From contig JBNRSN020000005.1 in NCBI GenBank assembly GCA_051313645.2, forward strand, positions 282,410,001-282,474,000: a stretch of 64,000 nt of DNA, written 5' to 3'. How positions within the stretch are numbered: the first letter of the stretch is position 1; the number at the start of each line of letters is the position of its first letter. The notes under the pieces are model-generated. The model saw only the letters and a list, made by a program, of their open reading frames with translations, searched no databases and was not told where the DNA came from. This document shows positions 45,145 to 64,000 of this stretch, one piece after another. Source of the stretch: Centroscyllium fabricii. Taxonomy: Eukaryota. The translations under genes and the position numbers were made by a program.

Positions 45145-48100
45145 TCCATTTATGGGATGTGGGCGTCACTGGCAAGGCCAGCATTTATTGCCCATCCCTA
45201 ATTGCCCTTGAGAAGGTGGTGGTGAGCCGCCTTCTTGAACCGCTGCAGTTTGTGTGGTGAAGGTACTCCCACAGTGCTGTTCGGGAGGGAGTTCCAGAAA
45301 TTTGACCCAGCAGTGATAAAGGATCGGCGATATACTTCTAAGTCAGGATGATGTGTGACTTGGAGGGGAACTTGGAGGTGGTGGTGTTCCCATGCGCCTG
45401 CTGCCCTTGTCCTTCTAGGTGGAAGAGGTCATGGGATTGGGAGGTGCTGCTGAAGAAGTCTTGGTGAACTGTAGTGCATACTGCAGCCACGGTACGCCAG
45501 TGGTGGAGGGAGTAAATGTTTAAGGTGGTGGATGGAGTGCCAATCAAGCGGGCTGCTTTATCCTGGATGATGTCGAGCTTCTTGAATGTTGTTGGAGCTG
45601 CACTCATCCAGGCAATTGGAGAGTATTCCATCACACTCCTTGCGCATTGTAGATGGTGGAAAGGCTTTGGGGAGTCAGGAGGTGAGACACTCACCGCAGA
45701 ATACCCAGCCTCTGACCTGCTCTTCTTGCCACTGTATTTATGTGGCTGGTCCAGTTAAGTTTCTGGTCAATTGTAACCCCCCATAATGTTGATAGTGGGG
45801 GATTCAGCGATGGTAATGCCGGTGAATGTCAAAGGGCGGTGGTTAGACTCTCACTTGTTGGAGATAGTCATTGCCTGGCACTTGTGTGGTGCGAATGTTA
45901 CCTGACACTTATCAGCCCAAGCCTGGACGTCATCCAGATCTTTTTGCATGCGGGCATGGACTGCTTCATTATCTGAGGAGTTGTGAATGGCGCTGAACAA
46001 TGTGCAGTCATCAGCGGACATCCCCATTTATGACCGTATGATGGAGGGATGGTCATTGATAAAGCAGCTGAAGACAGTTGGGCCTAGGACACTGCCCTGA
46101 GGAACTCCTGCAGTGCTGGCCTGGGGTTGTGATGATTGACCTTCAACCACCCCAGCCATCTTTCTTTGTGCTAGGTATGACTCCAGCCAGTGGAGAGTTT
46201 CCCCCCCACTTCCCATTGACTTCAGTTTTACTAGGGCTCTTTGATGCCACACTCGATCAAATGCTGCCTTGATGTCAAGGGCAGTCACTCTCACCTCACC
46301 TCTGGAATTCAGCTCTTTTGTCCATGTTTGGACCAAGGCTGTAATGAGGTCGGGAGCTGAGTGGTCTTGGCGGAACCCAAACTGGGCATCAGTGAGCAGG
46401 TTATTGGTTAGTACGTGCCATTTGATAGCGCTGTTGATGACACCTTCCATCACTTTGCTGATGATTGAGGGTAGACTGATGTGGTGGTAATTGGCCAGAT
46501 TGAATTTGTCCTGCTTTTTGTGGATAGGACATACCTGGGCAGTTTTCCATATTGTCGGATAGATGCCAGTGTTGTAGCTTGGCTAGAGGCGCGGCTAGTT
46601 CTGGAGCACAGGTCTTCAGCACAATAGCAGGGATGTCGTTGGGGCCCATAACCTTTGCAGTATCCAGTGCGCTCAGCTGTTTCTTGATATCACATGGAGT
46701 GAATCGAATTGGCAGAAGACTGGCTTCTGTGATGGTAGGGACCTCCGGAGTAGGCTGATATGGATCATCCACTCAGCACTTCTGGCTGAAGATGGTTGCA
46801 AATGCTTCAGCCTTGTCTTTTACATTCATGTGCTGGGTTCCACCATCATTGAGGATGGGGATATTCATGGAGCCTCCTCCTCCCGTTAGTTGTTTAATTG
46901 TCCACCACCATTCATGACTGGATGTGGCAGGACACAGAAACACAGAAGATAGCAGCAGGAGTAGGCCATTCGGCCCTTCGAGACTTCTCCACCATTTTCT
47001 TGATGAGATCATGGCTGATCACCCAACCCAGAATCCCCCACTTACCCTCTCCCCATATCCCCCGATACCCCCAACTCTAAGAACTATATCTCCACACATA
47101 CTCATGGTCAATTTTTAGCATGTCTTTGGGTGGTGAGAGGAAACCGGAGTACCCAGAAGAAACCCACACGAACATGGAGAGAACATGTAAACTCCATGCA
47201 GAGGTCCTGGGCCAAGCATGATTCGAACCCAGGAGCTCCTTATTGCGAGGCAGCAGTGCTAACCACTGCGCCACCGTGTCGTCCTGCAGAGCTTTGATCT
47301 GATCCGTTGATTGTGGGATCGCTTGGCCCTGCCTATAGTATGCTGCTTCTGCTTTTTAGCATTCATGTAGTCCTGTGTTGCAGTTTCCCCAGGTTGGCAC
47401 CTCATTTTTAGATACGTCTGGTACTGTTCCTGGCATGCTCTTCTACACTCCTTATTGAGCCAGGGTTGGTCCCCTGGCTTGATGGTAATGGTAGAGTGAG
47501 TGATATGCCGGGCCATGAGGTTACAGATTGTTGTGGAATACGATTCTGCTGCTGCTGATAGCCCACAGCACCCAGTTTTGAGCTGCTAGTTCTGTTCTGA
47601 ATCTATCCCATTTAGCACGGTGGTAGGGCCACACAACACGATGGAAGGTGTCCTCAGTGTGAAGACGGGGATTCGTCTCCACAATGACTGTGTGGTGTTC
47701 ACTGCTACCAATACTATCATGGACAGATGCATCTGCGACAGGTAGATCGGTGAGGACGAGGTCAAGTAGGTTTTTACCTCGTGTTGGTGTTCTCACAACT
47801 TCTTCCAAGTGGTGTTCAACATGGAGGAGTATTGAGGGAGGGAGGTAGGTGGTAATCAGCAGGAGGTTTCCTCTTGCTTGAAACCATGAGACTTCAAGGG
47901 GTCTGGAGACAATGCTGAGGACTCCCAGGGCCACTCCTTCCCGACTGTATACCACCGTGCCACCACCCCGTGGGTCTGTCCTATTGGTGGGACAGGACAC
48001 AGGACGTACCCAGGGATGGTGATGGAGGAGTTTGGGACATTGGCTTAAAGGTATAATTATGTTAGTATGACTATGTCAGTCTGTTGCATGACTAGTCTGT

Positions 48101-51499: not shown

Positions 51500-52140
51500 T
51501 TGGATGACCTACGCTTCACAATACTAAGCGAGTGTAATGTTATTGAAGGATCAGGCGGGAGGCCAACACTAAGTTTCAATGGAGCTTCTTTATTCAGGTC
51601 TTATACACTGCCACTCCAAGCCTCAACTGAGGAATGGCTTATGATGGCGTCGGCTCCCGCTTACGGGCGTGACGTCAGACATAAGTCAAGCCTGTGCTGT
51701 CTTTACACCAGTCACAGCTATCCTTACAGTGAGGTTAGTGATGAAAAAGCAGAGACAGTAACCATAAAGTTCCAAATTTCTTTGGAAAAAGACTGGAATG
51801 TGGCAAATATTACACCCCTATTTGAAAAACAAGGAAAGAGATAAGCTGGGGAATTATAGGCCTGTTAGCCTCATGTTATTAGTAGGAAAACTGCTAGAAA
51901 CTATAAAAACTGATAACATTAGTGAACACTTAGGGAGGTGTGCTCTAATTGAGGCAGTCAACACAAATTGGTAAGGGCAGGTCATGCTTGACTAACTTAA
52001 TCCAATTCTTCTAGGTAATTACAAAACACAGACAGTGGGAATGCAGTGGAGGTGGTAGATTTTCTTTCATAAAGTGTTTGATAAGAGACTTTCTGCAAAG
52101 ATTTAGGCCATTTAAAGGTAAAGTGGCAGCAACAAGAATT
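51500..52140 (+). mobile_element. Old CR1 ORF2 fragment split by a solo LTR
   Basis: DDLRFTILSE|VSDEKAE...DWNVANITPLFEK...GNYRPVSL. Confidence 0.8.
51533..51728. mobile_element. Solo LTR, 196 bp
   Basis: TGTAA...TTACA termini; 5-bp TSD GCGAG/GTGAG (one CpG-type change); TTTATT inside (AATAAA on the minus strand); cleanly interrupts the CR1 reading frame. Confidence 0.8.
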
Positions 52141-59875: not shown

Positions 59876-60429
59876 ATCCTGTATGGGATTGATTCAGCTT
59901 GAAAACTTCTCTGTGTTGGCTGAGTGAGTGGTTCCTGAAATAACGCTGAAGTTTTTGGGCAAGACATTGAAGTTCATTTATTTCTTTATTTAAGAGAGTT
60001 TGGGGTAAAAATAAATTAAAAATAAAAAGCTTAACAGGATTTTAAAATCGGATATAAAAGGGGCGGGACTTAGTGCATCTGCGCGGAGTGCGGCGGCGGA
60101 GAGTGCAGACGGGAGTTTGGGCTCTGGGAGTTCGGGCAAGTGGGGGTTTTCTGGTGTCTGTTGTGTTTCTGTCTGTTTTTCCTTTTCTTTCCTTTCCTTC
60201 CCTTGTTCACAGGTTCACAGGTTTGCCACGCATTGCGGAGGAGCTGTGGACCGGACAGGCTGAGCAGACTTATTTACCACCAGCCAGCCAAGCTAGTAGG
60301 TGATTTACTGCTGGGGTGAGTACTTTCCCGTTTTATAAGTGGTAAGCTTAAATAAATAGGGGTGTGTTTTCAATATAGTTAATCCGGGTAGAGGATTCTT
60401 AACTAGGAACTAATAATTAATTATATAAG

Positions 60430-61383
60430 ATGGGCGAGCAGGTGATGTGCCAATACTGCCAGATGTGGGAATACGTAGACACCATTGATGTCGTCGATCC
60501 CTACACCTGCGGTAAGTGTTTGAGGCTAGAGGAACTCGAGCTCCGTATTGATGAGCTGGAGACCCAGCTTCATACGCTGCGGGACATCAGGGAGGGGGAG
60601 AATTACCTGGATAGTTTGGTCCGGGAGATGGGCACACCAACAAGTTTAAATAATTCTGAAGTTAGTGAGCAAGGACAGGAAGGTGTGTCCATGAGCAAGG
60701 CAGGTATGGGGATCCAGGAGGAGGTGCTGCAGGAGCCACAGCCCTTGTACTTGCCGAACAAGATCGAGGCTCTTACTCACTGTGAGGAGAGGAACGGGGG
60801 CTGTGGGACGGATGAGCAACCTGGCCACAGCACCGTGGATCAGGGGGCAATTCAAGAGGGAGGAGTTAGAGGAAATGTTGTAGTGGTAGGGGATAGTATT
60901 ATTAGGGGGATAGATAGGGTTCTCTGTAGCCGACAGAAGGAGTCCCAAAGGCTGTGTTGCCTGCCCGGTGCTAGGGTTAAGGACATCTCTGCTGGGCTGG
61001 AGAGAAATTTGCAGTGGGAGGGGGCGGATCCAGTGGTCGTGGTCCATGTCGGTACCAACGGCATAGACAGGACGAGGATAGAGGTTCTGTTAAGGGAGTT
61101 TGAGCTGTTAGGGAACAAATTAAAAAACAGAACCTCCAGGGTAATAATCTCCGGATTACTACCTGAGCCACGGGCTAAATTGGCGAGGGTAAATAAAATT
61201 AGAGAGCTAATTGCGTGGCTCAAAGACTGGTGTGGGAAAAATGGGTTTGGTTTCTTGGGACACTGGCATCAGTACTGGGACAGGGGGGAGCTGTTACGTT
61301 GGGACGGACTTCACCTGAACCGTGCTGGGACTAGGGTCCTGGCAAATCATATAACTAGGGCAATAGAGAGGTCTTTAAACTAA
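60430..61383 (+). CDS. CR1 ORF1p: zinc finger/leucine zipper plus SGNH esterase domain
   Basis: CQYC...CGKC, heptad LEELELRIDELETQL, and esterase blocks GDS, PGA, GTN and DGLH; 317 aa. Confidence 0.93.
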   Translation: MGEQVMCQYCQMWEYVDTIDVVDPYTCGKCLRLEELELRIDELETQLHTLRDIREGENYLDSLVREMGTPTSLNNSEVSEQGQEGVSMSKAGMGIQEEVLQEPQPLYLPNKIEALTHCEERNGGCGTDEQPGHSTVDQGAIQEGGVRGNVVVVGDSIIRGIDRVLCSRQKESQRLCCLPGARVKDISAGLERNLQWEGADPVVVVHVGTNGIDRTRIEVLLREFELLGNKLKNRTSRVIISGLLPEPRAKLARVNKIRELIAWLKDWCGKNGFGFLGHWHQYWDRGELLRWDGLHLNRAGTRVLANHITRAIERSLN

Positions 61384-61415
61384 GTAGCCGGGGGGAGGTT
61401 TTAAGAGAGATAATA

Positions 61416-64000
61416 ATGACAGGGGAAAATGAATTAGAGCAGGGTTTCAGTGGGGAATCTGAAAATCGAAGTGTGCTAGGAGGATATAGAATGTATGAAG
61501 ATAAAGGTATAGTCGTAAAAGGGGCAAAAACAGAAATAAAGGGTAGTAAAACAGATGTGAAAGTGCTTTATTTGAATGCACGTAGTATTCGCAATAAGAT
61601 AGATGAATTGACGGTACAATTAAGCACGTATAGGTATGATATTGTGGCCATTACAGAAACATGGCTGCAAGGTGATCAGGACTGGGAGTTAAACATAGAG
61701 GGTTACTTGACAATCAGAAAAGACAGACAGGAAAGAAAAGGAGGTGGGGTGGCCTTTTTAATAAAGGATGGAATAACTGCAATAGAAAGGAAGGATATTG
61801 GGTCAAAGGATCAGGATAGTGAAACAGCTTGGGTACAGATAGAGAATAATAAGGGGAAAAAAACACTAGTGGGTGTAATCTATAGACCTCCAAATAGTTG
61901 TGACTCTGTTGGTCAGAACATAAATCAGCAAATAGTTGAAGCATGTAATAAGGGAACTGCTGTAATCATGGGGGACTTTAACTTTCATATCAACTGGGCA
62001 AATCAAACTGGGCAGGGTAGACTAGAGGAAGAGTTTATAGAATGTATTAGGGATGGGTTCTTAGAACAGTATGTCACTGAACCGACAAGGGGGGAGGCAA
62101 TCTTGGATCTGGTCCTGTGTAATGAAGCAGGATTAATTAAAAATGCCATAGTTAGGGACCCTCTTGGAACGAGTGACCACAATATGGTCGAATTCCATAT
62201 TCAACTAGAGGGGGAGCAATTTGAAACTCAAACCAGGGTACTTAGTCTAAACAAGGGAGATTATGAAGGTATGAGAACAGAATTGATTAAAGTAGATTGG
62301 GATAACGGACTAAAGAATAAGACGGTACATGAGCAGTGGTGTACTTTTAAGGAGTTAGTGTACAACCTTCAAGAAAAATACATTCCACTGAAGAAAAAAA
62401 GGGGTAAAGGAAAGGACAGCCAACCATGGCTAAGTAAAGTAATAAAGGATAGTATTCGGCTAAAGGCAAGGGCATATAAGGTAGCCAGATACAGTGGGAA
62501 GACAGAAGATTGGGAAGCATTTAAAAGTCAGCAAAAAATAACAAAGAGATTAATTAAGAAGGGGAAAATAGATTATGAAAGTAATTTAGCGAAAAACATA
62601 AAAACTAATAGCAAGAGTTTTTATAGTTATATAAAAAGAAAAAGGGTGGCTAAGGTGAATGTTGGTCCATTGGAGGGTGAGACTGGGAATTTGTTGGTGG
62701 GGAACATGGAGATGGCAAAAGCATTAAACGAATATTTTGTATCAGTCTTTACCGTAGAAGACATTAAAAATATTCCAACGCTGGATAAACAGGGGGCTAT
62801 AGGAATGGAGGAGTTAAACGCTATTAAGATCACTAAGGAGATGGTATTAGGTAAATTAATGGGACTTAAGGCGGATAAATCCCCTGGGCCTGATGGATTA
62901 CATCCTAGGGTCTTGAGAGAAATAGCGGTGGGGATTGTAGATGCATTGGTGATAATTTTCCAAAACTCCCTGGAGTCAGGAAGGGTCCCGGTGGATGGGA
63001 AAATGGCTAATGTAACACCTATATTTAAAAAGGGAAGTAGACAGAAGGCTGGTAACTATAGACCGGTTAGTCTAACATCTGTGGTGGGTAAAATGTTAGA
63101 GACCATTATTAAAGAAACACTGACGGGGCATTTGGATAAACATAACTTAATCGGACAGAGTCAGCATGGTTTTACGAAGGGTAAGTCATGTTTAACTAAT
63201 TTGCTCGAATTCTTTGAGGAAGTAACATCTCGGGTGGATAAAGGGGAACCGGTGGATGTGGTATACTTGGACTTCCAAAAGGCTTTTGACAAGGTGCCAC
63301 ATAAGAGACTATTGCTTAAAATAAAAAATTATGGGATTGGGGGAAATATATTAGCATGGGTAGAGGATTGGCTTTCAAACAGGAAGCAGAGAGTTGGGAT
63401 AAATGGTTCATACTCGGGATGGCAATCGGTGACTAGCGGTGTTCCGCAGGGGTCGGTGCTGGGACCCCAGCTGTTTACAATCTATATAAATGATTTGGAG
63501 GAGGGGACCAAGTGTAATATATCAAAGTTTGCAGATGACACAAAAATGGGAGGAAAAGCAGGGAGTGAGGACAGAAAAAGCCTGCAAAAGGACATAGATA
63601 AGCTAGGTGATTGGGCAGCAATTTGGCAGATGAAATTTAATACTGATAAATGCGAAGTTATACATTTTGGAAAAAAAAATCATAGAGCAAGTTATTCTCT
63701 AAATGGGGAGGAGCTGCGTGGTAATACAACGCAAAGGGACCTGGGGGTATTAGTGCATGAATCACAAAATGTTAGTATGCAGGTGCAGCAAGTGATTAGG
63801 AAGGCCAATGGAGTCTTAGCCTTTATTGCTAGGGGGATAGAGTATAAAAGCAGGGAGGTCTTGCTGCAGCTGTACACAGTATTGGTGAGACCGCATTTGG
63901 AATACTGTGTGCAGTTTTGGTGTCCATACTTAAGAAAGGATGTACTTGCCCTGGAGGCAGTGCAGAGAAGGTTTACACGGTTAATTCCAGCGATGAGGGG
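61416..64000 (+). CDS. CR1 ORF2p: APE endonuclease plus reverse transcriptase (partial, runs off the window)
   Basis: LYLNARSI, ITETWL, YRPP, GDFN, SDH (EN); NYRPVSLTS, QHGF, YLDFQKAFDKVPH, GVPQGSVLGP, FADD (RT). The first in-frame ATG after the ORF1 stop is at 61416, but the frame is open upstream through 61371. It is absent from the ORF track, presumably because it has no stop in the window. Confidence 0.93.
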   Translation, partial: MTGENELEQGFSGESENRSVLGGYRMYEDKGIVVKGAKTEIKGSKTDVKVLYLNARSIRNKIDELTVQLSTYRYDIVAITETWLQGDQDWELNIEGYLTIRKDRQERKGGGVAFLIKDGITAIERKDIGSKDQDSETAWVQIENNKGKKTLVGVIYRPPNSCDSVGQNINQQIVEACNKGTAVIMGDFNFHINWANQTGQGRLEEEFIECIRDGFLEQYVTEPTRGEAILDLVLCNEAGLIKNAIVRDPLGTSDHNMVEFHIQLEGEQFETQTRVLSLNKGDYEGMRTELIKVDWDNGLKNKTVHEQWCTFKELVYNLQEKYIPLKKKRGKGKDSQPWLSKVIKDSIRLKARAYKVARYSGKTEDWEAFKSQQKITKRLIKKGKIDYESNLAKNIKTNSKSFYSYIKRKRVAKVNVGPLEGETGNLLVGNMEMAKALNEYFVSVFTVEDIKNIPTLDKQGAIGMEELNAIKITKEMVLGKLMGLKADKSPGPDGLHPRVLREIAVGIVDALVIIFQNSLESGRVPVDGKMANVTPIFKKGSRQKAGNYRPVSLTSVVGKMLETIIKETLTGHLDKHNLIGQSQHGFTKGKSCLTNLLEFFEEVTSRVDKGEPVDVVYLDFQKAFDKVPHKRLLLKIKNYGIGGNILAWVEDWLSNRKQRVGINGSYSGWQSVTSGVPQGSVLGPQLFTIYINDLEEGTKCNISKFADDTKMGGKAGSEDRKSLQKDIDKLGDWAAIWQMKFNTDKCEVIHFGKKNHRASYSLNGEELRGNTTQRDLGVLVHESQNVSMQVQQVIRKANGVLAFIARGIEYKSREVLLQLYTVLVRPHLEYCVQFWCPYLRKDVLALEAVQRRFTRLIPAMR

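Follow-up and report, generated by a model that had tools for sequence, protein, structure and literature searches.

The heptamer U_UUA_AAC is the frameshift site between open reading frames (ORFs) 1a and 1b of coronaviruses, and retroviruses make Gag-Pol by −1 frameshifting. Arterivirus frameshifting is stimulated by protein, with a C-rich motif ~10 nt behind the slip site. To our knowledge, translation of ORF2 in long interspersed nuclear elements (LINEs) has been described for only a few elements, L1 and SART1, in which it is ascribed to reinitiation and ORF1p and ORF2p are taken to be separate. According to the accessible parts of PMC5972666 and PMC3708506, termination-reinitiation proceeds via UAAUG in SART1 and with a 63-nt spacer in L1. 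CR1-group elements are described as dominant in most vertebrate genomes in the abstract of PMC13343379. Here we analyzed 64,000 nt of Centroscyllium fabricii DNA (contig JBNRSN020000005.1, positions 282,410,001 to 282,474,000; hereafter the window, in whose own numbering positions are given), which carries a CR1 copy with U_UUA_AAC at the end of ORF1. Sequence comparisons suggest, with a probability that we put at about 0.78, that this heptamer is a programmed −1 frameshift site yielding the CR1 endonuclease-reverse transcriptase (RT).

ORF1 of the window copy starts at ATG 60430 and ends AGG TCT TTA AAC TAA (61369-61383). As the initial annotation of this stretch had stated, the heptamer is in X_XXY_YYZ phase and abuts the ORF1 stop, and ORF2 is open across the junction in the −1 frame. 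The ORF2 frame begins at 61359, is stop-free to 64000 and extends 121 codons beyond the window end, giving 996 codons counted from the heptamer; both frames are intact in this copy. The family is young; identity is 99-100% among the 40 copies scored, the junction pattern has 3360 matches in the genome, and the exact heptamer is present in 99 of the first 100 copies listed. Its layout is that of canonical vertebrate CR1, with an esterase-type ORF1 (PF13472, 4C1B) and both APE and RT domains in ORF2 (PF03372, PF00078), and, among named sequences, its closest ORF1 relatives belong to rays and sharks. Because ORF1 carries two further phased heptamers (60645 and 61122), a single one is unremarkable by chance, and the case therefore rests on comparison across lineages. 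As judged from the aligned sequences, it is the conservation of the heptamer across lineages, not its presence, that exceeds chance.

The initial annotation suggested that other vertebrate CR1 ORF1 proteins also end in L-N-stop. This end was found in 54 of 86 ORF1 homologues, or 54 of 59 when only those terminating just past the esterase catalytic motif are counted, the other five being one LNY and four different tails. Its carriers are sharks, rays, a teleost, turtles, a lizard, a frog and birds. Two LN-ending CR1 ORF1 proteins (P0023 and P0056) carry the source names Pseudomonas aeruginosa and Klebsiella pneumoniae, probably because vertebrate DNA contaminates these bacterial assemblies. An alignment of 36 rows shows no variation at L316 and N317, which is no independent test as almost all rows were LN-ending by choice. 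LN is dispensable for the fold in an L2 relative, because the solved L2 esterase 4C1B ends without it; the alignment with 4C1B stops at position 313 and the protein ends two residues later. Three L2-type esterase loci had neither LN nor the heptamer.

At the nucleotide level, 27 hand-picked lineages were compared, of which nine come from the window genome; the other 18, taken from host-derived metagenome contigs, have their best named matches in ORF1s of birds (14), turtles (3) and reedfish (1). The 18 were those among 56 metagenome loci with a CR1-type ORF1 end and DNA behind it, three more were of L2 type, and the remaining loci, L146 apart, ended before the junction, lacked an ORF1 tail or were unrelated. 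Searches for further loci returned only one weak, unrelated locus in viral contigs and none in prokaryote genomes. The two lineages without the exact heptamer are single decayed copies. The codon comparison covered 24 lineages with a median pairwise identity of 0.46. The third base of codon 315 is T in 24/24 lineages across eight amino acids, L316 is TTA in 24/24 versus 50/414 (12%) of other Leu codons, and N317 is AAC in 23/24 versus 71/145 of other Asn codons. The top-codon share was 0.39-0.81 for 14 of 15 control residues, and conservation of the slip site exceeds coding need in this comparison, in which one of the 15 control codons was also invariant. The stop codon lies right behind the heptamer in 23 of 25 lineages (TAA in 8, TAG in 12 and TGA in 3). 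The heptamer is a real and lineage-wide feature, and the expected invariance of TTTAAAC, including the synonymous choices of T, TTA and AAC, was borne out.

The linker between the slip site and the endonuclease spans 27-87 codons in the 16 lineages with both ends placed in an intact copy. ORF2 lies at −1 in all 16, and the linker changes in length by whole codons only; the constant −1 relation anticipated in the initial annotation thus persists despite this range. Ahead of the first Met, the −1 frame is free of stops over 493 codons, versus 41 and 49 stops in the other two frames, a result common to most copies of the multi-copy families despite the partly selected representatives. Some linkers lack a Met and the others have their first one 2 to 42 codons past the slip site; a reinitiation-type AUG near the ORF1 stop is not a shared feature of these lineages. 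Six of the 16 linkers have no Met, the first Met then lying within the endonuclease, and in one such family Met is missing from all 18 open copies. Entry of ribosomes into ORF2 at the heptamer would predict both the stop-free sequence before the first Met and the Met-less linkers, and an AUG restart would predict neither. As had also been predicted, the ORF2 ATG is not conserved: no ATG is fixed across lineages, and that at 61491 has no fixed counterpart in the others. ATG 61416 was ruled out as the ORF2 start, since the family has ACG in 28/30 copies and the window copy is one of two with ATG, where it probably reflects CpG decay.

Another CR1 lineage of the same genome carries an additional base within the slip site, which joins ORF1 and ORF2 in frame into 1314 residues; open frames as long as 1318 residues were retrieved with a different ORF1 as the query. 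The fused junction reads R-A-L-N-L-I-S-G-G, which is the predicted transframe sequence. Exact junction counts gave 811 copies of the L-N-L form and 167 of the form with an added A (L-K-L), ~980 fused copies in total, and 2319 of the unfused sister. A hand count of the first 100 junctions listed found 30 at +1, one at −1 and one at +2. Fused copies are dispersed, and the 14 fetched at full length differ in their 5′ ends and mostly have a common 3′ end; others lie in clusters and may be duplications. At 47 diagnostic sites the L-K-L copies are intermediate, with 21 of 23 clustering with all 40 L-N-L copies (support 0.74), and the mean terminal branch shortens from 0.024 in unfused through 0.011 in L-K-L to 0.006 in L-N-L copies. 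The order was therefore unfused, then insertion of A, then A>T, with the fused lineage the youngest in the sample. The 5′ array of the fused family consists of ~192-nt tandem monomers, whose number varies among copies (L208, ~337-893).

Selection on the fused frame was assessed from nonsynonymous (N) and synonymous (S) changes. In ORF2, the changes common to at least three fused copies comprise 35 N : 39 S versus 300 N : 80 S in singletons (p=9e-8), and the fused elements were therefore copied while selection acted on the ORF2 that each carried. By this measure, ORF2 is under purifying selection after the fusion. The fused ORF1 part has no shared stop or frameshift versus 3.1 expected (P=0.047). 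The substitution patterns suggest that ORF1 must remain readable to reach ORF2, its own sequence mattering little; ORF1p of ZfL2-1 was dispensable in HeLa assays, as stated in the accessible part of PMC3905857. The fused junction is still a slippery-type heptamer, and the heptamer and the downstream −1 stop are unchanged in 39 of the 40 copies covered. Retention of this stop is no evidence of selection, because it was already in the parent.

Downstream of the heptamer, the G6 run noted in the initial annotation at a distance of 9 nt stands as to position, but the family norm is G7 (61389 is G in 29/30 copies). Across lineages, G occupies +11 to +15 in 23/24, 24/24, 22/24, 21/23 and 18/23 lineages, respectively, at a background GGGG start frequency of 0.012; in the −1 frame, two of these sites (+11 and +14) are wobble positions. 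Quadruplexes are able to stimulate −1 shifts, with an optimum spacer of 6-8 nt and at ~7%, as given in the accessible part of PMC3919603.

The production of an ORF1-ORF2 fusion by programmed frameshifting, which the initial annotation had proposed, is supported by three comparative predictions and, indirectly, by the naturally fused sister lineage. In the mechanism that we envisage, tRNA-Leu and tRNA-Asn would slip from UUA AAC to UUU AAA and CUA would be the next codon, giving a product ...S-L-N-L-S-S-G-G.... Canonical vertebrate CR1 would make a ~1311-residue ORF1-ORF2 fusion alongside free ORF1p, with the predicted tryptic transframe peptide SLNLSSGGEVLR (SLNLSSR in the window copy). The G-run at +11 to +15, perhaps together with the adjacent stop, may stimulate the slip, possibly as a protein-bound motif or a weak two-tier quadruplex instead of a pseudoknot. 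Its 10-nt distance fits an arterivirus-like protein-bound motif better than a quadruplex in this comparison.

Several observations weigh against this reading. The stimulatory RNA structure suspected downstream of the heptamer did not materialize: local folds of five windows gave no stable hairpin (z −0.3 to +1.4), and folds of 15 copies, by a method that models no pseudoknots, gave none that was stable or shared, with z near zero or positive. Since the hairpin test failed, the classical structure-stimulated type of frameshift site is not established for the CR1 junction. When the G-motif was scanned for duplexes with the following 3.7 kb, no homologous partner scored better than the shuffled controls. 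Only 7 of the 15 copies have a predicted quadruplex, and the G-run start at +11 exceeds the 5-8 nt spacer given in the accessible part of PMC3919603. The lineages compared were chosen by hand, are related by descent and in part consist of single decayed copies, and the representatives of multi-copy families were partly selected for an open frame. Codon fixation can also arise otherwise, as the control codon C177 (60958-60960) is TGC in 21/21. Among 15 loci obtained with a distant query, four deviate from the exact heptamer; three of these have G_TTA_AAC, which is itself a viral slip site. Met is present in 10 of 16 linkers, and in three only 2 codons past the site. In the fused lineage, ORF1 has been almost neutral since the fusion (21 N : 9 S, omega 0.87, versus 0.39 between unfused families) and up to four linker Mets are retained, so that its ORF2 could start internally.

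Two of these points also stand as observations in their own right. The C177 codon is invariant amid varying neighbour codons, possibly as another nucleotide-level signal or by chance. The four loci without the exact heptamer (L241, L243, L246 and L248) are older copies with G-runs just 5′ of the site, and the G_TTA_AAC of three of them may be a decayed heptamer or a slip site of variant form.

If termination-reinitiation gave access to ORF2 instead, in the manner of SART1 or L1, ribosomes would restart at a linker AUG or non-AUG codon and the conserved letters would be the reinitiation signal. The conserved stop and the Met-containing linkers would suit such a restart, and L1 ORF2 tolerates non-AUG starts. 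Reinitiation is moreover the described route for SART1 and L1 (PMC5972666, in the part accessible). However, it predicts neither a phased heptamer nor a constant −1 frame nor an open frame before the first Met, which in six of the 16 lineages is reached only inside the endonuclease, and the fused lineage has amplified with its ORF2 under selection although it has no ORF1 stop. We therefore consider reinitiation unlikely. A closer variant would have the ribosome pause with the stop codon in the A site while only peptidyl-tRNA-Asn slips from AAC to AAA, giving the same fusion product in a termination-linked manner. Such a slip would account for the stop adjoining the heptamer and for the lack of a detected RNA structure, whereas the first T and TTA, fixed in 24/24 lineages, are unneeded for a P-site-only slip on AAC, and all three stop codons are used; we consider this variant improbable. 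With the stop-driven variant included, −1 frameshifting is highly probable from these comparisons.

The remaining alternatives dispense with a ribosomal shift. A spliced or edited RNA could set ORF2 in frame, the motif being a splice acceptor, a branch point or a polymerase slip site, and the TAG of 12/25 lineages, followed by G-runs, is a possible acceptor. Lineages with TAA or TGA, including the window family, nevertheless have no AG there, and no pyrimidine tract lies 5′ of the motif; runs of only 3 nt argue against polymerase slippage, and, as a weak further point, one contig from a run guessed to be RNA is gapless across 61291-61519. This explanation appears very improbable, and we give as little credence to the view that Leu-Asn is kept for the esterase fold while the codons and the frame are inherited accidents. 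The shared ancestry of the lineages and the one other invariant codon would be in keeping with inheritance, but the solved L2 esterase lacks the LN end, synonymous sites elsewhere vary widely, and the linker length shifts in whole codons only.

Beyond programmed −1 frameshifting at the junction itself, we tentatively propose a wider scenario, to which we give somewhat less than an even chance. CR1 would encode a vertebrate-wide esterase-endonuclease-RT polyprotein made by a −1 shift predating the split of cartilaginous and bony fishes, with an unfolded G-run stimulator 10 nt downstream; a shark-type lineage would have become hard-wired (unfused, +A, A>T) as the youngest wave, and may run the logic in reverse. 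This reversal is conceivable because the surviving heptamer of the fused lineage would shift ribosomes onto the −1 stop a few codons on, releasing a near-native ORF1p. If −1 frameshifting is indeed conserved, the CR1 RT would carry an N-terminal esterase, the ORF1:ORF2 ratio would be fixed as in Gag-Pol, and the annotation of CR1 ORF2 starts would change. It would also define a ~25-nt frameshift cassette with a possibly new stimulator, for which the fused lineage serves as a natural in-frame control.

Features of the CR1 copy in the window and loci of the fused lineage
Feature	Position	Strand	Basis
CR1 LINE copy, young	59895..64000, continues to ~64758 window-equivalent	+	5′ limit by blastn with family copies
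ORF1, 317 residues, Cys-rich N-terminus and SGNH/GDSL esterase (~60889-61335), L-N-stop end	60430..61383	+	PF13472; PDB 4C1B, E 3e-41
Slippery heptamer U_UUA_AAC in ORF1 phase, predicted −1 shift site	61374..61380	+	exact in 25/27 lineages
Linker, 59 codons, −1 frame, stop-free, amino acids unconstrained	61380..61556	+	dN/dS ~1.2 versus sister family
ORF1 stop (TAA), directly 3′ of heptamer	61381..61383	+	
G-run, conserved core +11 to +15 behind heptamer (61391-61395), candidate stimulator	61390..61395	+	cross-lineage G counts
ATG in window copy, ACG in family, not a family start codon	61416..61418	+	ACG in 28/30 copies
First in-frame family ATG, 107 nt behind ORF1 stop, start needed by the reinitiation model	61491..61493	+	30/30 copies
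APE endonuclease domain, ORF2	61575..62180	+	PF03372
Reverse transcriptase domain, ORF2	63027..63677	+	PF00078
Fused-lineage loci	L208-L221 (C1044:212648166-212654166 and others); L286-L310		

The 3′ end of the element, seen at locus L228 (near 1740-1759), is a short tandem repeat without poly(A), which we take to be a CR1-type tail. The 3′ untranslated region (UTR) of L228 (~1344-1760), just beyond the window end, ends in a duplicated unit that bears short tandem repeats, and sister copies differ in 3′UTR length in ~88-nt units. The window also contains older LINE ORF2 fragments with 35-65% identity to the window ORF2 (45836-46579, 2546-2872, 51816-52023, 47572-47808 and 3735-3824).

The window copy resembles the canonical vertebrate CR1 of PMC13343379 in its esterase ORF1, its APE-RT ORF2 and its putative membership of a vertebrate-wide clade; in its accessible parts that paper names the layouts only as ORF1(+) and ORF1(−), and its main text does not use the words 'frameshift', 'slippery', 'reinitiation' or 'fused'. 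Our literature search found no account of CR1 frameshifting within a scope that left aside the original CR1 papers of the 1990s, Repbase/Dfam notes and supplements, which may mention the overlap. We regard the frameshift signal at the CR1 ORF1-ORF2 junction as a new finding provisionally, because those original papers may have noted the overlap.

Among non-long terminal repeat (non-LTR) retrotransposons, SART1 and L1 share with CR1 a bicistronic RNA in which ORF2 translation is coupled to ORF1, whereas CR1 has neither a stop-start overlap nor a fixed AUG. In the accessible part of PMC3708506, ORF1 functions are argued to need a product separate from ORF2, while the CR1 junction predicts a fusion. 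HeT-A of Drosophila is a further case of frameshifting in a non-LTR element, but its shift lies inside the gag of an RT-less element and not at an ORF1-ORF2 junction (PMC5009743, text covered). That text mentions HeT-A, TART and L1, and 'CR1' does not occur in it. The arterivirus motif is similarly short and unstructured and lies at a fixed 10-nt distance, but is C-rich where that of CR1 is G-rich and has a binding protein, which for CR1 is only putative. Compared with coronaviruses and retroviruses, CR1 is a non-LTR retrotransposon whose shift is predicted from sequence, and 5-8 nt downstream no pseudoknot or hairpin was found, only the G-run at +11 to +15. With them it has in common a polymerase ORF at −1 behind a structural-type ORF and no conserved start codon, and with the coronaviruses the same heptamer in the same phase.

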